A stretch of 61,208 nucleotides of DNA, counting the filler, from Basidiobolus ranarum (taxonomy: Eukaryota): the NCBI GenBank assembly GCA_040143965.1. It is 20 parts of 20 records of this genome, joined end to end, with 100 filler letters (N's around TTAATTAATTAA, not from the genome) between each part and the next. Parts side by side here need not be neighbours in the genome. Positions count along the whole stretch, not along the records: positions 6,161 to 9,138 come from JASJQH010009692.1; 19 more parts are not named here. One strand, 5' to 3'. Positions 5,795-21,431 of this stretch are shown piece after piece; within the stretch, counting starts at the first letter, position 1; every line of letters begins with the position of its first letter. Made by a program: the position numbers and the translations under genes. Below the pieces are notes generated by a model that saw only the letters and a list, made by a program, of their open reading frames with translations, ran no database searches and was not told where the DNA came from.

Positions 5795-8613
5795 GTAAAA
5801 AGCTCACTGGTTAGTTTAGTTAAATCAAGTAATTTGTGCACTATGATGCATGAGAATGCAGGCCATCCTCTTTCTGGTTCTTCATTGACTGCTTGCTCTT
5901 CATCAAAAACAGGGAAAACATCACAGCCTCTTCTAAGCTGGCTTTGCTGTTGATGCGTACTACTAGCTGATGAATCAACTTATTGGGCTCTTGCCCTTTT
6001 TGGGGATTTTACCTCAATTCAAGTGGTTAGTTGTGTAGATTCTTCTTGATACCTTGTCAGNNNNNNNNNNNNNNNNNNNNNNNNNNNNNNNNNNNNNNNN
6101 NNNNTTAATTAATTAANNNNNNNNNNNNNNNNNNNNNNNNNNNNNNNNNNNNNNNNNNNNCTCTCAATCAAATCTCGGTGGATCAGCCAAATCCTTTCGC
6201 AGATTGAGGATCACGCACCTTGACACTAGTCGATTAATTGGGTGAATCGTGGATTTGAATTGTTGCTCAGGATCCCGAGTGAAAATATATTTTGACATCA
6301 GACCCCGATCCAAAAGAAATATTTGGATGATTAATTAACCTGAAGTTAAAGTGTTCCAATGAAAGCTTTCGTTTCAAGAACGGCAAAATTTCACTAATTA
6401 ACATCGACGAATGCATTTATCCAAGTCTAACCTTATGTACCATAGGGCTAGTCCATTACTATCATTGATGCTGCCTTTACAATCGAGGTGTATCTCATGG
6501 CACCAGTTTTAGCAGCTGAAGAAGTGAAATTGTCAAGTTATGAATACATGACTTCTATGCATCTGAGCATCATACCAAAAACTGTCACAGGTCACGTGAT
6601 TTAGCTACCTATAGGGAAATGTTCCGAAATTCAATTTATACTTCCCTCATGAGCATCCAACCGATCTCAGGAAGATGTGACTCCTCATTGGACTGGTCTG
6701 CAAGGAATGCCTTAATTGGCTGACTCAAAAGTAGTTGAATCCGAGAAACCTTCCCTAATATATTACCATGATCCAATCCACTGGCTAATATGCTTACAAC
6801 TTCTGTTCTGGAGTTTAAAACCCTGCTCACCAGATTCTAGGAAAGTAAAGTCTTGATATGGTAAGCAACGGTTCATCCCAGACTGATTGCTGAAGCAAAG
6901 ACCCTTCTTGAAGATCATCAACCTAATCTGATATTGGTGTGTCAATTGGCTGTCGAGTGATTGTTTAATATATGTAGATTATAGCTATGCAGATATTGCT
7001 TAAACTTTCCTTTGGTACCAAGTAAGGAAGGCACCCGAACCACAGCTCTAATCTAGAAGGCCACGACGGTTGAGTACCAATGCCGAGTGAACTGGGTTGG
7101 ATATCCTTGGATGTACTGATGAATGATATATTTGGGTTTGCATCCATCAGAAGGAATTCCTCTTCATACTATACACTGTTTAGGTAGTACAGCGGTGGTT
7201 TGGAAGATTGGAACTACACCTAAGCATGTGGCGGGAGTTTCATATGCTCTTTATACAGTGCAGCTGCATACTTTGGCTCGACCTTTTTATATATCAGTGT
7301 ACTTATTGGATGACCGAAAACCCTCAAAGCCCAAGCGGTCCTCGAGAACATCATCAATATTACGATATATCTCCGTTGAGGCCCAGAGTCAGGGCGGAAC
7401 GTTGACACACGTATGATAGAGTATAATTGCAGTATGCCTTGACACGCACCCAATTTCATTGTTTTCAATCCCAATTAGTATTCCATTTTGGATAACTATC
7501 TGATGAGTTCGATCATAGAAATGCTCTGATTGAAATATGGATGAATGAAGAGCGATCGCAGAGGATCAGCCTAATACCACAAAGGCTGAATCAGAGCTGC
7601 CAATGGAAGGAACTTTAATGCAAATTAACTATGGAGACCAAGATTAATTGCATTGGTTGCTACCCATAGCAACTCGTATTCCAGAACAAGTGAATTAGTT
7701 GCCTTGAAGCTAATTGGAATGTAAGTATTCACAGATTGCACAAATCAGACGAATCTTGCCCTTAGTGGCGCTTAGGGATATACCCTGCCAGTAGACATCC
7801 AACTAGGCAAGAATGCACCGAGTAATCTGAAAGAGTGCCGGTACACGGCCTGGAAAGAACGTGCATTCTCTCTATTGTCTTCGCCTCTTTTTCGCGTTTG
7901 GTAGCAGTGTATGGTTGTCACCCAAATTTGAATTCAATCGCCTCAACACTCTCAATTCACAATGTCGGCAATGTATGACAAACTGTTGGCTCATTGGATG
8001 AAGTCCCTGTGATCGAACGTTGACTCCTGATACCAAGCGTGGATTGCGTAGAGAATAGCGTTTGATATACCCCAATCTGTGTTGATCAGAAACCACAACC
8101 TATCTAAGCCATCCAGTACTCTTTTTCGGAACTCTTCATCCGTAATTAGGATATGACTTGATTCGTGGATCTTCCTAGTGGAGTCAAATAGTTGTTAAGC
8201 TCTCGATCACACGAGGGGTAACCAAGTCCCAAAACAATACCAAAATTATCGACACTATTGGAGGTAGCTGGAAGGCTCGGATTGTTAAGAATTCGTAGAA
8301 GACATACCATACGTTCGCCGATTAATTTAAAATATTTTAAACATCTAGAGTTTTTGGTCAACAGACTCCTAAATAGAGAATGCTTGGCCAGAGGAGGAAA
8401 TCACCCGATTCATACGGGTTCTTAAGATTGATATTACCGTTCAAGTCAGCAAATGTATCCCAAATTTGCTTGTAGAACTTCGTGACAAACCATTTCCATA
8501 AAGAATTCGATCTCTAAGGGAAAATCTTCGAATCGTTAAACTTATAAAAGCTGCGAACGATGCATGTTATTTCCACACCAAAAACAAAGTCTGAGACTTC
8601 AGTTTCTAAAGCA

Positions 8614-9138
8614 ATGATCATGTTAAAAGCTCTTCTCTCCGCTATTACCTTAGCCTGTTGTGCTATTTCTCTCGCTGATGCGCGCGTCAATTGTCCTAAC
8701 GGTAACGGGGTGTACTGTGGAAGTGTATTGGGTATGACTTTGCTTGATCCATAGCTGCTTGTGATATTATAGTTACTAATTTGTCACTTTTTACTTTTTC
8801 ATAGGCCTTAAAGCCAATTCTCTTTACGACTGCAAATCGGATCGCTGGAGCTGGAGTTATCACCCTATAGAAAGCTGCCGTAACGGCTGTGTTGTCGCTA
8901 AAGCTGGCACTCCTGATCACTGCCAAGGCGCTGATGAAACTGGTGATGACAACAAGGATGATAATGGTAATGACGGCAACGATGGCAACGACGGAAATGA
9001 TGGAAACAATGGAAATGACAAAAATGATAACACTGACACTACCAACGTTTCCAAGTTTCCTTTGGAGTTCCGCTTCAGAAATGGACAATGCACTGATTGG
9101 GCTGATGCTCGCTACGCTCAAATTACTGGTCATCATAC
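8614..9138 (+). CDS. Secreted protein: signal peptide, six-Cys N-terminal module, Gly/Asn/Asp linker, start of CHAP domain (3'-truncated by contig end); exons 8614-8731 and 8805->9138
   Basis: GTATGA...TACTAAT...pyrimidine tract-TAG intron at 8732-8804. Spliced frame is open: MIMLKALLSAITLACCAISLADARVNCPNGNGVYCGSVLGLKANSLYDC...CRNGCVVAKAGTPDHC...(DGN)n...FRNGQCTDWADARYAQITGHH. Confidence 0.85.
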
Positions 9139-9238: not shown

Positions 9239-10133
9239 TGAGAGGAATGGAAGATCTAGTTCTGGAATACTCTGGCACTCCTGACGCAGGAAAGTTTGAA
9301 GGCTACAGTGAGGGAGACTAGGTAAGAACTCTTGTTGATTGCAGAACAACAAGTGGGTACTCTTGTCTCTACGGTAATGGAGCCATAACTTGGAATAGCA
9401 AGAAGCAACCAACCATAGTACTTTCCACTACAGAAGCAGAGTATATTGCTGCCTCTCCTACTTCACAAGAAGCTATGTGTTTAAGTAAGTCATTTCTCAA
9501 CTTGGAATACATGTAAAGATGTGCTTTTACTGTAATTGATGATAATCAAAGTTGTATTTCATTAGCTAAAAACCCTACCTTTCATGCTAGAACAAAACAT
9601 ATAGATATTAGGCAGCATTTTGTTAGGGAAACAATATGGAATGATATAATTGAGCTTGTCCATTGCCGTACTGAAGAAATAATTGCTGACACCTTAACCA
9701 AACATTGAGCTAAAGCACAATTTGAGTTATTGAGATATAAGTTAGGTTTAAGAGAAATACAAAATAATTAGTTAAGTGGGAATGTTGAAATTAGGTAAAT
9801 AGCCACTCATTGGTGAGTAGTTGGTTTATTCATATTCTGATTATTTAGCACTCAATTCAGCCATTCAAACAAGTGTTTCTTGCTCTTAGTGATAGATATA
9901 TAAATTAGTTCTCTTTCACCAATTTTCACTATTTACACAAAACCTGTCCAAATCACCTCAAATTTTCACCCATACTCAACAGGCATTTTTGTTATGATCT
10001 AAGCAAGTCCAATAGTCCCATTTCATACTAAACTATAAAGAGGACATATTCAATTTGATAAAACCTTATTGTCTAATTCACAAAATCTAAATCTTGTCCA
10101 AATCACTTTCAAGTCCCCTAAACACTGTGATCA
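9239..10133 (+). mobile_element. Copia 3' end: RNase H remnant, polypurine tract (PPT) and 3' LTR B (9783-10133)
   Basis: W.SKKQPTIVLSTTEAEYIA, DNQSCISLAKNPTFHARTKHIDIRQHFVRE and ADTLTK motifs, then AAGTGGGAA directly before TGTTGAAA. Confidence 0.92.
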
Positions 10134-18461: not shown

Positions 18462-21431
18462 CACCATCGACTCAGGGCAAACGCCTAACTGGATCAAATG
18501 GTGAGCCAACTGGTTAGCTCTCCTATTGAGTTGGCTGTAAGTGACATATTCAGAGGTCATAAACTGCAATGCGATATTGTCCGGATGAAGATTTGCCTGA
18601 GCTTCAAATGCATGATGAAGACAGGTGCCGTGTACATTTTCATGAATAGTGGAGTGCAAGGAACCGTCAAAGTTCATTTGTGATGACATTAATTCGATAC
18701 TCAAATGTTTGAGTTTCATGTTTGCCGTTGTACTGACTAATCCTTGGAAAAGAGTTTTGAAATTAGCAGATAGCAACTCAGCATGATATGGTGAAATTAA
18801 TTGAGTGCTGAACATCAAAATATATGATAGTTCAAGATCATCTGATTCAACACATAAACCTAATGGATACTATGAATATAAATCAATGATTAGCTCAAAA
18901 CCATAGACAAAATAAGAATGGTGGCAGTTTCAAATACCTCTGATTTTTCATTACTGCCCAGTGGTACAAGTTCCAGGGAATTTCTACTACCATCAGGTGA
19001 TTGCTTAGTGGGATTTCTACTCTTAATCATGTAACTATTCTTGTAATCAAGAAGAGTATCAAAAAGTGGTGCTGTATCCGTCCAGCCTTGGATATCACGC
19101 AGACTACTTTGTTGGTAGGACAGGGAGGAAGTATGATCACTGTGAACACTTTGAAGCCACTCAATTACTGGTATTTCACCATTATAATGAATGCGGCACG
19201 CAAGCGTGTTAATGCAAGGTCCAATCATAGAAGAAGCCCCTTCCTGCTCGCCGTCTCTTCCATTGATGGTGTAGCCAAAAGTGACATCTTCACTTTGAGT
19301 GTACATTCTTAGAAGTATAGCCCAGACAGCTTTAATAAGAGTAAAGATCGTTACTCTCGAACGTTGAGCAAACTGAGCTATGTTACAGATAGGTATTTCA
19401 ATTGAGCCAGGAAGGTAAACCATTTCAGGCTTCACTTGCTCGGATACTCCAATCTTCGGAAATGGTACAGCATTCAGCTGTGCGAATTGATTTTTCCAAT
19501 AAGATTTTTCTTCTGCAATGTGGGCTGGAGTACGATTAAATAAGCTTTCAACAAAATATTTGTAAGGATATGCTTTAGAGCGTGGTTGTTGATGATAGAC
19601 CGCGTAGAAATCATCTAAAACTAAGCCCCATGAGGTTGCATCCAGAATTCCGTGATGCCAGCTAATTACAAGCACACGCTTATTCGTGCCAGTTTCAATC
19701 AGTCCTAATCTCATGTTTGGTTGACTTAAGCTAAAATGATTCTGTTTATCCGTGGTCAAGCATGTAGCAGTTGCTTCCGCGATAGAGTCTTCAGTGCAGT
19801 TGATGTGCAACCATTGAGGAGTGTAATCTCTGATAACCACCTGGAAAAAGGCGACACTACTCTCATTCATCACTGGATTCTGAACAAAGACTGAGCGTAG
19901 AATATGGTGATCATGGATAACAGTTTGCCAAGCCTCTTTGAATTTCCGCTGGTCGAAGTCACCAACTATATCAAAGGTTTGTTGCACATGGTAGTAATCC
20001 GATGATTTCAGCATTCCAGCTATAAGCCCTTCCTGTAAGTGAGTACAAGGAAGAATATCCTCAATGAGACTGGGATCAACTCCAGCTTCAAGGAGAGTCT
20101 CGTTGTAAAGCACATTAAAGTTCGATTCCGATAGTTTGAGCAATGGGAAGTCACTTCGAGTATGCTCTATAACATTCAACTGAGTGCATTGACTGATCAT
20201 TGTATTAAGAACCTGCTGCCATTTTAAAAGCCACTGAGATACAATATCTTCAGAATGTAGCGATGTACTAAAAAGAATGCTGGCTTCGAAGCTATTCTGG
20301 TTTACACCAGCCAATATATCGAATACCTGATTTCTCCTCCATTGCAGATCGACATCACCAATATCAAAATCGAAAGGCGCCTCTACAGGTTGGAAAAAAG
20401 AGTTTTGATTCTCCAATTGTTGGAACCGTCCAGAATAATTAAATACGATTTGAATTATATCTTTTTTAGGAGGGTTCTCTTGGTATAGCTTCAGATCACG
20501 TAGTAGACCGTAAATAATTCCGTTACCTGGGATAATCTTTCTCAAATCCTTGACACGTTTCAAAATAGTCAAAGGATCCTCCATTTCGTTAGCATTTACT
20601 ACCATAGGATAAATTGTGGTAAACCAGCCAATGGTTCTGGAAATATCAATATCTTCACGCCACGGCTCTCGACCGTGCCCTTCAATCCCAAGAGTCATGG
20701 CACTCAGATTGAATACTGAGCAATAGGCAATGACTAGAGAGGAGATCATCAGGTCTGTAGCTTCTGTCTGGAAGGGGATATTTGCCTTGCCAAATAATTG
20801 CTCAGTCTGAGAAGGCGTCAGTTTAAATGATAAAGATTTCGTGGATTGTAATGTATTCTGCTCTAGGAGCGACATATCACTAATTAAAGGCTCAGATATA
20901 TCTTGAATCGGCCACATGTCTATATCTAAGCTTTGAGCATACTCATCTAGCATGTAACTCCACTGCATAAAAGACATTGACTTGTACCCACACTCCTTTC
21001 CTTGTAAAAGTTGCTCAAGGTCTTCCCAGATAATGCGCCATGATACTAGGTCAATAACAAAATGATGGATTGTCATGAAAAGCAACTGCTGGTTGTCACT
21101 AGTATCGTACAAAGAAAACTGGAAAAGCGGACCGGAGAGGAGATTGAGACTATGTTGAAGTTGATGAATGCTATCTTTGAGCTCATCGGTCGATTCAATC
21201 TTGATATGTCGAGCTTCATTTTGTGCTTGTTCAATGGGCAGAATTTGGATTTTCCACTTTCCTTCTGAACAGGAAAAGCAACTGCGTAGTAACTCATGGT
21301 GGTGAATCAGAGAAGAAATAGCCAAATTCAAGCTTTCAACGGTGATAGAGTCTCTCAGCTTAAGCAGCCACGATTGATTGAAGTGATGTATGTTTTCCTG
21401 AGGAGTATTCAAGAAACGTTTCAGAATAGGA
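18462..21431 (-). CDS. Non-ribosomal peptide synthetase internal fragment: epimerization, condensation and start of adenylation domain; intron 18870-18937; truncated at both ends
   Basis: E motifs HHFVIDLVSW, EGHGRE, RTIGWFT, FNYSGRF; C motifs PCTHLQEGL, WHHGILD, IGPCINTL; A1 motif TYSQLNRRANQLAHHL. A GTATTT...GCTAAT...TAG intron joins the two ORFs as EKSE|YPLGL. Confidence 0.95.

Follow-up and report, generated by a model that had tools for sequence, protein, structure and literature searches.

Gene structure at the locus

The window, i.e., the whole stretch of 61,208 nucleotides of Basidiobolus ranarum DNA that was analyzed, comprises 20 contigs of approximately 3 kb each, joined by N44-TTAATTAATTAA-N44 linkers. 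It contains the 5′ two-thirds of a nuclear Basidiobolus gene, which is cut at position 9138, a genuine contig end. The gene begins with an ATG start codon at 8614 on the + strand, and joining of exons 8614-8731 and 8805-9138 yields a single open frame of 150 codons up to the contig end; without splicing, the frame hits a stop at 8752-8754. In the spliced protein, a signal peptide is followed by a six-Cys module, a D/G/N linker and the start of a CHAP domain (approximately 26 residues). The features are as follows:

8614..8682, + strand: start codon and predicted signal peptide of approximately 23 residues, read from the sequence (hydrophobic core, A-D-A before the mature end)
8692..8731, + strand: six-Cys module, part 1, with Cys1, Cys2 and the G-x-G-x-Y-C-G motif, at the end of exon 1 (alignments A1 and A4; phmmer matches to bacterial tandem repeats)
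8732..8804, + strand: spliceosomal intron inside the module-coding region (homolog colinearity; same intron in P0120)
8805..8923, + strand: remainder of the six-Cys module, Cys3-Cys6 (alignments; AlphaFold2 pLDDT 83-95 over the module)
8924..9058, + strand: acidic D/G/N-rich low-complexity linker, predicted to be disordered (9-nt periodicity; pLDDT of the P0003 equivalent)
9059..9138, + strand: CHAP start, approximately 26 residues, with the catalytic Cys codon TGC at 9089-9091 (identity to P0003)

The intron is 73 nt long, bounded by GT and AG, in phase 1 and 30% GC, with a branch-like site (TACTAAT) at 8774-8780, 25 nt upstream of the acceptor. The first-pass annotation had proposed this intron and the single open frame created by its removal; the coordinates were reproduced, and the best full-length relative, P0003, which is 68% identical, aligns in the same order on both sides of the splice junction. 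In a tblastn search against the window, P0003 matched in two colinear pieces, 8620-8736 and 8801-9136, with a joint E of 5e-46. The predicted splicing of 8732-8804 rests on this homology and on a public gene model, P0120, which is labelled B. ranarum, can be rebuilt without any difference from the window segments 8560-8731, 8805-8966 and 9056 onward, and has the same first intron. The second intron of P0120, 8967-9055, lies inside the linker and is spurious; because it shifts the frame, P0120 lacks the CHAP start. The initial statement that the gene had been missed by the ORF track thus holds in part: the gene is not wholly unannotated, since P0120 exists, but its CHAP start is absent from that model.

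Alternative starts lie at 8620 and, in the annotator's model, at 8560, with homologs P0003-P0006 beginning at the position equivalent to 8614/8620. The six Cys residues span Cys27 to Cys79 of the spliced protein. The linker is encoded by tandem repeats at 8933-9038 with a period of 9 nt, and the linker-equivalent stretch of P0003 had a pLDDT below 50 in AlphaFold2. The signal peptide, six-Cys module, acidic linker and CHAP-like end described at first reading were each found where they had been placed. When the other 19 contigs were searched by tblastn with six homologs for the missing 3′ half of the CHAP domain, chance matches only were obtained (E ≥0.4).

The CHAP domain

Pfam searches with both exon translations of the window returned 0 families at E up to 10, because only approximately 26 residues of the 81-position CHAP model are on the contig. 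The identity of the domain was instead apparent from the relatives. Among 1040 candidates, six of six homologs were Basidiobolus proteins that are longer than the fragment and contain CHAP (PF05257), and all four that were tested (P0003, P0004, P0006, P0007) scored 56-61 bits against a cut-off of 26, with P0003 at 61 bits. The CHAP assignment made from the fragment was supported by its longer homologs. Over the final 26 residues before the contig end, the window matches P0003, a protein of another species, without a single difference, and the CHAP start of the window is 92% identical to P0007/P0008.

The Cys codon at 9089-9091 falls within an N-G-Q-C-T-D-W motif, and the contig ends with ...GHH; the catalytic His and the remainder of the CHAP domain lie beyond the contig end, outside the window. 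The first-pass annotation had read GQCT as a catalytic-Cys motif and had predicted a GHVA-type His downstream, and the relatives agree with it on both counts. Cys129 of P0003 is invariant (alignment A2) and begins a helix (residues 129-141), the first of the CHAP domain, in the P0003 model, and C129, H189, E194 and N208 are all invariant in a 12-row alignment of relatives. The third catalytic residue of the triad in these relatives is one that we assign presumptively, by analogy.

The papain-like alpha+beta CHAP fold was assessed on the ortholog P0003, which stood in for the incomplete protein of the window. The AlphaFold2 model of P0003 had a mean pLDDT of 82, with values of 87-97 in the CHAP part. 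Its best solved match was 5t1q (Z 15.1, rmsd 2.2 Å over 117 residues), and seven structures matched at Z ≥12, i.e., 5t1q, 9euf, 2k3a, 8ej5, 9eum, 4cgk and 2lrj, all of which were also among the best CHAP or staphylococcal Foldseek matches. P0003 shares its fold and Cys...His core with the CHAP hydrolases of Firmicutes and phages (PF05257, MEROPS C51; 5t1q, 2k3a, the phi812 hub 9eum, PcsB 4cgk and the LysK CHAP 4csh), at Z 15.1-12.2 and 27-36% identity over 107-126 residues. Those enzymes are also modular, with a targeting module, linker and catalytic domain, as in the fungal enzyme. The Basidiobolus gene, however, has a eukaryotic host, an intron and a eukaryotic signal peptide, and its targeting module belongs to none of the named wall-binding types, such as SH3b or LysM.

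It is very unlikely that the window copy is a dead or truncated paralog with only its relatives functional. The contig stops inside the CHAP domain, so that the copy could break beyond 9138, and there are many paralogs, some of which have odd gene models (P0009, P0065). All 150 codons are nevertheless open, the catalytic-Cys motif and all six Cys are preserved, and the identity of the last 26 residues to P0003 across species argues for purifying selection.

The CHAP family in Basidiobolus

In each of two Basidiobolus species, the CHAP family has 20 or more members, and one homolog was found in Entomophthora muscae. Full-length relatives of the window gene were found under Basidiobolus labels only, and all have the Pfam CHAP domain. 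In the homology search, 39 of 109 matches were labelled Basidiobolus (58-100% identity), and there was no other eukaryote label among the 109. The fungal proteins bearing the six-Cys module form one subclade (95/96) within the fungal radiation. The Entomophthora row was unstable, pairing with P0026 in IQ-TREE (95/87) but falling as sister to all Basidiobolus rows in FastTree, and had a long branch (1.16).

The gene is resident in the fungal genome, as judged from its intron, a host-like GC3 and the position of relatives on long host contigs. GC3 was 0.42, compared with 0.39-0.42 in two other ORFs of the window; the median GC of the Ktedonobacteria loci described below was 0.52. The relatives sit on fungal contigs of 96-268 kb in two or three species. 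The original argument that the intron speaks against bacterial contamination is thus joined by GC3 and by family members on contigs of up to 268 kb, and the fungal host that it presumed agrees with the organism labels, which are Basidiobolus for the family and B. ranarum for P0120.

Origin of the CHAP domain

The nearest matches from outside Basidiobolus were 57-63% identical and came from Chloroflexota; where named, these were Ktedonobacteraceae or Thermogemmatispora. In a scan of species-representative prokaryote genomes, 69 of 69 loci were labelled Ktedonobacteria or Chloroflexota, a purely Ktedonobacteria yield that is partly built in because the motifs were specific to this CHAP subfamily. 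These Ktedonobacteria “surface antigen” CHAPs (P0041, P0067, P0080; L001-L069) are the closest sequence relatives of the catalytic domain, at 57-62% identity, with long motifs in common around the Cys and the His. The bacterial proteins, of 300-360 residues, have their N-terminus in the cytoplasm, are held in the membrane by an anchor and lack a Cys module, whereas the fungal CHAPs are secreted and shorter, with low-complexity linkers.

To enter the trees, a domain piece had to cover at least 95 positions of the profile (224 reduced to 217; P0065 is absent from the kept rows); one locus piece with a stop was also removed, and locus pieces were thinned at 85% identity (91 reduced to 64). Representatives scoring ≥135 were left out of the thinned set and of the 83-row tree but were included in a FastTree of 308 rows. 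In the careful tree of 83 rows, the fungal sequences formed a clade at 100/100 with a stem of 0.55, fungi and Ktedonobacteria were joined at 99/94, and the fungal clade was nested among Ktedonobacteria at 86/96. In the AU test, however, a single Ktedonobacteria clade was not rejected (p 0.352), so that from these sequences the fungi can be placed either within the Ktedonobacteria CHAPs or as their sister group, and no more narrowly. In the FastTree, the fungal clade was free of any other row. The bacterial side of the subfamily included four Ktedonobacteria families, with other unlabelled bacterial groups outside.

Both the tree and the identities support a bacterial origin of the CHAP domain. 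Since one fungal clade (100/100) is joined to Ktedonobacteria at 57-62% identity, the transfer appears to be old, not recent, with a large expansion afterwards. The first-pass annotation had regarded the gene as horizontally acquired and had named a phylogeny with bacterial homologs as the way to check this, with a broad, vertically inherited eukaryotic clade as the result that would speak against a recent transfer. The phylogeny agrees with acquisition from bacteria but not with a recent date; the eukaryote labels seen in the trees and in the searches, which for phmmer means among the best 150 of 1455 matches, were confined to Basidiobolus and Entomophthora, and no such broad clade was seen.

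Bacterial contamination, chimeric assembly, transfer from fungus to bacteria or an ancient vertical eukaryotic gene might each be considered, given the 57-62% identity to bacterial proteins, but we regard them, even taken together, as highly improbable. These readings sit poorly with the spliceosomal intron, the host-like GC3, the N/D-rich linker and the presence of the family in two or three fungal species, on contigs as long as 268 kb. They also sit poorly with a bacterial side that spans four Ktedonobacteria families plus the unlabelled outside groups and a eukaryote side on which two genera were seen.

The six-Cys module

The fungal module is a single, disulfide-rich copy of approximately 53 residues. 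By sequence, it belongs to an unnamed family of bacterial repeats, members of which are attached to wall hydrolases of many kinds. The repeat unit has approximately 50 residues, six conserved Cys and the motifs G-x-G-x-Y-C-G and L-Y-x-C; alignment A1 contained 14 invariant columns in the module, and the fungal copies carry an insertion of 3-4 residues between Cys3 and Cys4. Among the best 150 of 1455 phmmer matches of P0003 were long bacterial proteins with up to 15 tandem copies, the multi-repeat proteins matching at E 2e-118 to 1e-33. A profile search with the module found 185 proteins. M23, Amidase_2, SpoIID, GH25, SLT or CHAP was present in 11 of the 25 repeat proteins tested and, by hand count, such wall-hydrolase families were carried by 42 of the 120 profile matches listed (185 found).

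The module occurs mainly under Myxococcota labels, and the named sources are Myxococcales, Polyangiaceae, Sandaracinaceae, Labilithrix, Minicystis and Ca. Electrothrix. In the Myxococcota multi-repeat hydrolases (P0112, P0113, P0116, P0136, P0209), the repeat is of the same six-Cys kind, approximately 50 residues long, and 43-58% identical to the fungal module, but is present in 3-15 tandem copies as opposed to one; its partners are mostly M23, Amidase_2, SpoIID, GH25 and SLT, and the CHAPs, where present, are distant.

Sequence searches with the module matched no Pfam or NCBIfam family and no solved structure (the lone PDB match was vicilin, E 8.4), and no sequence match to CBM14/peritrophin-A was seen. 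By structure, Foldseek returned nothing at E ≤0.001, with CHIT1 CBM14 at noise level (E 1.2-2.7). The VIA-align matches were all below trust level, i.e., Der p 23 (Z 3.9, rmsd 3.1 Å over 46 residues), Blo t 12 (Z 3.5), Avr4 (3.0 and 2.7) and tachycitin (2.3), and these modelled scores hint weakly at a chitin-binding-like theme only. As a lead only, the PAFC antifungal protein matched at Z 3.2 with 23% identity. In the Atlas, a search by features gave no usable match for the module, and its structural neighbours there were M23 and Amidase_2 proteins of Myxococcota together with small proteins of Ascomycota.

The chitin-binding theme bears on the target of the enzyme. The same gene and family might act on the fungus's own wall, on secreted glycoproteins or on another amide, with the module anchoring the enzyme to chitin, and the CBM14-type domains among the weak structural neighbours of the module would suit a role in wall remodelling or in spore or conidium release. 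The CHAP superfamily also includes a non-wall enzyme, glutathionylspermidine amidase (Z 8.9-9.2). We nevertheless consider a non-bacterial target unlikely. The nearest relatives of the catalytic domain, among solved structures and by sequence alike, hydrolyze peptidoglycan; in bacteria, the module accompanies peptidoglycan hydrolases from six families; and every structural score behind the chitin anchor is at noise level. To our knowledge, moreover, fungi have no peptidoglycan-like stem peptides.

By sequence, the six-Cys module is also a bacterial-type repeat, with an affinity separate from that of the CHAP domain. In searches of Ktedonobacteria genomes with the module profile, which had no positive control, there was no match in five genomes and then one weak match in 121 (E 0.003, with a stop inside); as the module was not found there, the gene looks chimeric. 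Rather than being fused within the fungus, module and CHAP could have been acquired as one piece from an unsampled bacterium, since bacterial proteins with both exist (P0183, P0209, P0309, P0347 and others) and in P0183 the module likewise stands immediately ahead of CHAP. The bacterial CHAPs in question are distant, however, with profile scores of 19-40 (P0183, P0309, P0347; P0209 gave no score) against 181-215 for the four module-bearing fungal proteins on the same profile. The nearest CHAP relatives, those of Ktedonobacteria, have a membrane anchor and lack the module, and within the fungal family the proteins with the module branch as a derived subclade. A single donor is accordingly disfavoured, and we judge it quite improbable, the uncontrolled Ktedonobacteria searches being part of that judgement. 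Fusion within the fungus is the reading followed below.

Proposed history and function

Taken as a whole, the data make it probable that a Ktedonobacteria-like CHAP was acquired, expanded, fused in part to the module and put to use as a secreted peptidoglycan hydrolase; the same joint judgement covers the protein of the window as a secreted peptidoglycan hydrolase of modular build, with a CHAP cysteine amidase/endopeptidase at its C-terminus, predicted from its sequence and from the P0003 model. The Ktedonobacteria-like gene, taken from soil bacteria, would have passed into the ancestry of Basidiobolus, perhaps ahead of the divergence from Entomophthora. There it would have acquired linkers, an intron and a signal peptide of eukaryotic type before its copies multiplied. 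A fusion confined to one sub-lineage would have joined the CHAP domain to a module of separate acquisition, by which the enzyme is directed to a glycan wall. Once secreted, the enzyme would cut the stem peptides of bacterial peptidoglycan by means of a Cys-His dyad, and may help the fungus to compete with the bacteria of soil, dung and the amphibian gut or to feed on them. We infer an antibacterial or bacterivory function, in line with the first reading of the locus.

The known bacterial wall-cutting enzymes captured by eukaryotes form a short list, which includes tick Dae2, GH25 lysozymes and the Saprolegnia CHAPs. The present case would add a fungal lineage in which a captured wall hydrolase has multiplied to approximately 20 copies per genome, as well as a sub-lineage that gained a second bacterial-type part after the transfer. 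It would also add a likely donor group, Ktedonobacteria, which is named in no paper found by our literature search. That search found no paper on this fungal CHAP case or on the six-Cys repeat, although the supplements of PMC7466969 may list the genes as transfer candidates.

In the oomycete Saprolegnia parasitica, seven secreted CHAP genes have been described, for which acquisition from bacteria and subsequent duplications were proposed (PMC3681718). The two cases are alike in that an osmotrophic eukaryote, there one tied to aquatic animals, has secreted, duplicated CHAPs of presumed bacterial origin. They differ in the eukaryotic lineage, and no relation of the Saprolegnia proteins to the Basidiobolus clade was seen; the table of that paper gives no donor, and no Cys module is reported in it (PMC3681718).

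A bolder version, which we put forward tentatively and hold to be possible but doubtful, is that Basidiobolus itself built a chimeric bacteriolytic enzyme from two imports, a Ktedonobacteria-type CHAP and the six-Cys unit, that the repeat represents a new class of domain, targeting glycan or peptidoglycan walls, of predatory Myxococcota, found with at least six lytic families, and that the approximately 20 secreted CHAPs per genome constitute an antibacterial arsenal. If true, this arsenal would help a gut- and dung-dwelling fungus to live amid dense bacteria. The common, unnamed six-Cys repeat is a candidate new wall-binding domain, with possible use in engineered lysins.

Tick Dae2 is reportedly a papain-like peptidoglycan amidase that passed from bacteria to a eukaryote and was kept as a secreted antibacterial factor, with its activity demonstrated. 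It would represent the same kind of event, in the same superfamily, as the Basidiobolus CHAP. Dae2 and other eukaryotic “domesticated amidase effectors” are derived from bacterial Tae toxins (bioRxiv 10.1101/2020.04.10.036376). Those effectors are Tae/NlpC-P60-like rather than CHAP and are single genes as opposed to a family of approximately 20 members, and the activity of the Basidiobolus enzyme is a prediction from sequence. Among the structural matches of P0003 were Tae3 (Z 7.4) and Tse1 (Z 7.1).

Gene structure and public gene model

Features of the gene and its product
8614, + strand: start codon ATG, by sequence reading
8614-8731, + strand: exon 1, by sequence reading
8732-8804, + strand: intron of 73 nt, GT..AG, phase 1
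8805-9138, + strand: exon 2, running to the contig end
First part of the product: signal-like hydrophobic N-terminus of ~23 residues, by sequence reading
After the N-terminus: six-Cys stretch of 53 residues, by sequence reading
Before the CHAP start: D/G/N-rich linker, coded by imperfect 9-nt repeats
Contig end: N-G-Q-C-T-D-W...G-H-H stretch, by sequence reading
9089-9091, + strand: catalytic-Cys codon, within the CHAP start

The first-pass annotation had proposed that the 73-nt intron joins one open frame, and this was confirmed. The spliced segments (8614-8731 and 8805-9138) give 150 codons plus two bases, whereas without splicing the frame is closed by a stop at 8752-8754. By tblastn, P0003, the best full-length Basidiobolus homolog, aligned to the window as a colinear pair of segments (8620-8736 and 8801-9136; joint E 5e-46), and thus runs uninterrupted over the proposed 8731/8805 junction. 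The intron has a GC content of 30%, as against 46% in the coding part, with TACTAAT at 8774-8780, 25 nt upstream of the acceptor. The gene sits at the 3' end of contig 6161-9138; this is the literal contig end, and the sequence past 9138 is unrelated. The initial reading was essentially right; this copy is incomplete, and we infer its function.

The gene had also been described as missed by the ORF track. This holds for the CHAP start, which is absent from the public model, but a model with the same first intron does exist, i.e., P0120 (124 residues, B. ranarum source label), recovered in an exhaustive homolog search. P0120 was rebuilt exactly by script from 8560-8731, 8805-8966 and 9056 onward, its first intron being identical to the one proposed here. 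Its second GT..AG intron (8967-9055) lies in the repetitive linker, and the resulting frame shift terminates the protein ahead of the CHAP motif. As the linkers of all full-length relatives are read through in frame, we take this second intron to be an artefact. By starting upstream, at 8560, the model gains ~18 residues that are absent from all homologs.

Assignment to the CHAP family

A search for longer proteins with the exon-2 translation yielded six matches among 1040 candidates, all with B. meristosporus or B. ranarum labels, 216-249 residues in length and with precomputed PF05257 (6/6). P0003 was the best homolog of the window protein (68% identical). Pfam analysis of four homologs gave CHAP scores of 56-61 bits in each (cut-off 26), and the last 26 residues on the contig are identical in P0003, which bears out the CHAP call made from the contig end. 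Fragments of the window itself matched no Pfam family, as expected for pieces holding only ~26 residues of the domain. A downstream GHVA-type His, named at the outset as something to look for, is present in the relatives: H189 of P0003, within a G-H-V-A-V-V-E motif, was invariant across 12 aligned rows of fungal and bacterial proteins, as were C129 (P0003 numbering), E194 and N208.

The AlphaFold2 model of P0003 (54 rows) had a mean pLDDT of 82 (CHAP 87-97, module 75-89, linker <50). Its best solved match was 5t1q, the CHAP domain of a S. aureus amidase (Z 15.1, 35% identity; rmsd 2.2 A over 117 residues). Next in order were the CHAP domains of the phage phi812 hub and S. saprophyticus, then phage Andhra, PcsB and the LysK-type CHAP domains. 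The nearest NCBIfam models were staphylococcal amidases and PcsB, all far under equivalog cut-offs. The CHAP assignment is sound for the family, with the His-bearing half of the window copy lying off the contig.

Family expansion and bacterial relatives

With the CHAP part of P0003 as query, 109 matches were obtained among 130 candidates. Basidiobolus labels accounted for 39 of these (21 B. meristosporus and 18 B. ranarum, counted as clusters at 90% identity; 58-100% identity), and other searches added two B. ranarum members, P0118 and P0120. N-termini vary across the Basidiobolus proteins, the commonest layout being a signal peptide, an N/S/G-rich linker and CHAP. The six-Cys module was found among the 39 in P0003-P0006 only, while the truncated model P0009 retains its last three Cys; at least three module-bearing paralog pairs are common to both species. 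P0009 (B. meristosporus label, 182 aa) begins mid-module and lacks a signal peptide and the first three Cys. The model probably omits a first exon, a hint that this paralog also has an intron.

No eukaryote label other than Basidiobolus occurred among the 109 matches. The nearest non-Basidiobolus matches (57-63% identity) were metagenomic proteins of 300-365 residues, those with names being Chloroflexota, Ktedonobacteraceae or Thermogemmatispora. Scanning prokaryotes at one genome per species gave 141 motif matches, 109 of them relatives, and the best 80 were resolved into 69 loci.

Labels of the 69 loci
Ktedonobacteraceae: 34
Dictyobacteraceae: 10
Thermogemmatisporaceae: 6
Ktedonosporobacteraceae: 1
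Ktedonobacteria without family: 3
'uncultured Chloroflexia': 13
Chloroflexota (no rank in labels; from record titles): 2

Since the scan motifs were subfamily-specific, these loci show where the subfamily lives, not its absence from other phyla. The 69 loci (L001-L069) contained 92 CHAP pieces, with two or three in several (e.g., L031, L045, L058), so that some genomes carry neighbouring copies of the subfamily.

By IQ-TREE (83 rows, 120 columns), the 39 rows from Basidiobolus fell into a single clade (100/100, stem 0.55) together with one protein of Entomophthora muscae. This clade grouped with the Ktedonobacteria rows at 99/94, leaving 15 other bacterial representatives outside, and was placed among the Ktedonobacteria rows at 86/96; Ktedonobacteria as one clade was not rejected by the AU test (p 0.352). 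A quick tree (136 rows) and FastTree (308 rows) likewise gave one fungal clade, with no other visible representative inside it. The GC3 of the gene (0.42) is host-like, two other window ORFs having 0.39 and 0.42; the median GC of the Ktedonobacteria loci was 0.52. From these sequence comparisons we conclude in favor of one old transfer, from a Ktedonobacteria-like bacterium and before the split of the two Basidiobolus species, with a large expansion afterwards. The horizontal acquisition proposed at first pass thus stands, but not as a recent event. The transfer may even be older than the split from Entomophthora.

The E. muscae-labeled protein, P0204 (314 aa, on a 260-kb contig), is a divergent member of the clade from a second order of Entomophthoromycotina, carrying K-G-Q-C-S-E-W around the catalytic Cys and G-H-V-A-I-V-E around the His. 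It sits on a long branch (1.16) and is unstable in position between IQ-TREE and FastTree; the protein bears on how old the transfer is.

The six-Cys module

Exhaustive phmmer with P0003 gave 1455 matches at E 0.001 or better. Among the best 150, long proteins carried as many as 15 tandem matches to residues 21-84, with E down to 2e-118. Pfam analysis of 25 repeat proteins found wall-hydrolase domains (M23, Amidase_2, SpoIID, GH25, SLT, CHAP) in 11, other domains in three and none in 11. A module profile built from 12 copies matched 185 of 7999 scored candidates; by hand count, 56 of the 120 matches listed had any precomputed Pfam family and 42 had those wall-hydrolase families. Named sources were Myxococcales, Polyangiaceae, Sandaracinaceae, Labilithrix, Minicystis, a 'Deltaproteobacteria' MAG and Ca. 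Electrothrix. The sole eukaryote label among these 120 was P0003, at rank 120; because single-copy proteins score low, more fungal carriers could be among the remaining 65.

The module had no match in Pfam, NCBIfam or PDB sequences. In the AlphaFold2 model of P0120 (20 rows), it forms a small beta structure (pLDDT 83-95), for which Foldseek gave no match at E 0.001 or better. The best VIA-align scores (Der p 23, Z 3.9; Blo t 12, 3.5; PAFC, 3.2; Avr4, 3.0/2.7; tachycitin, 2.3) are too weak for a claim of fold, the recurring theme being small disulfide-rich chitin-binding domains. Small Ascomycota protein clusters (89-93 aa) were also structural neighbours (TM 0.71-0.75 by query; Atlas rows 3 and 5), which, taken with the weak PAFC match, hints at some connection with the small antifungal proteins of fungi.

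Two bacterial repeat proteins, P0112 and P0167, share ~130 C-terminal residues after the repeats, with a conserved Cys and G-H-I-V and unrecognised by Pfam, which may be another papain-like wall hydrolase.

Proposed chimeric origin

In Ktedonobacteria, the proteins nearest to the fungal CHAP are membrane-anchored and lack the module. In searches run without a positive control, the module profile matched 0/5 and then 1/121 Ktedonobacteria genomes. The lone match, L070 (G118:C482:653-751, - strand; E 0.003, 21 bits, model positions 4-36), has a TAA inside and is probably due to chance. In bacterial proteins with both module and CHAP, the CHAP is distant from the fungal type: only P0183, P0309 and P0347 reached the subfamily profile, scoring 19-40 as against 181-215 in four module-bearing fungal proteins. 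The latter type forms one subclade (95/96, IQ-TREE) within the fungal radiation. The simplest reading is that the CHAP gene was already present in the Basidiobolus lineage when the module joined it. As the intron lies within the module-coding part, it would have been gained after this addition.

Proposed function and published parallels

The window protein has a secretory-type N-terminus; in the models the module is folded and the linker disordered, and the orthologs have a CHAP fold in which Cys and His are conserved. The protein would be secreted, the module would hold it on the glycan wall, and CHAP would cleave an amide bond, either within the stem peptides of peptidoglycan or at MurNAc-L-Ala. 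The many paralogs differ in their N-terminal parts and may thereby broaden the range of walls targeted. There is also an argument from habitat, i.e., soil, dung and amphibian gut, which agrees with published titles and abstracts. Tick Dae2 is the best-studied functional parallel. The genome paper of Saprolegnia parasitica describes a secreted, duplicated CHAP family of seven genes, likely acquired from bacteria (PMC3681718).

Full-text literature searching found no report of CHAP or peptidoglycan hydrolases in Basidiobolus. They are not mentioned in the main text of PMC7466969 (its supplements, outside this scope, might list them), in the portions covered of PMC8778642, or in those of PMC11291939 and one supplement, despite B. 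meristosporus being in that study. Events of this kind are already known, and the proteins are present in databases with automatically assigned names; the novelty lies in the donor group, in how large the expansion is and in the second module of bacterial type.

Other features of the window

The 61,208 bases of the window comprise 20 contigs, of 2954-2981 bases each and with GC of 0.33-0.41, joined by spacers (N44-TTAATTAATTAA-N44), so that neighbouring contigs say nothing on genomic adjacency.

Other features
9239-9700, + strand: possible decayed copia-type pol fragment with stops, by-eye reading of the contig that comes next in the window
18893-21430, - strand: NRPS-like ORF on contig 18462-21431, at least 846 codons, intronless, open at the upper contig end
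56556-57176, + strand: retrotransposon fragment with reverse-transcriptase RNase H-like domains PF17919 (E 7e-23) and PF17917

The NRPS-like ORF had two matches to the PF00668 condensation domain (E 4.5e-92), and fits the bacterial-like NRPS genes reported from Basidiobolus (PMC7466969).
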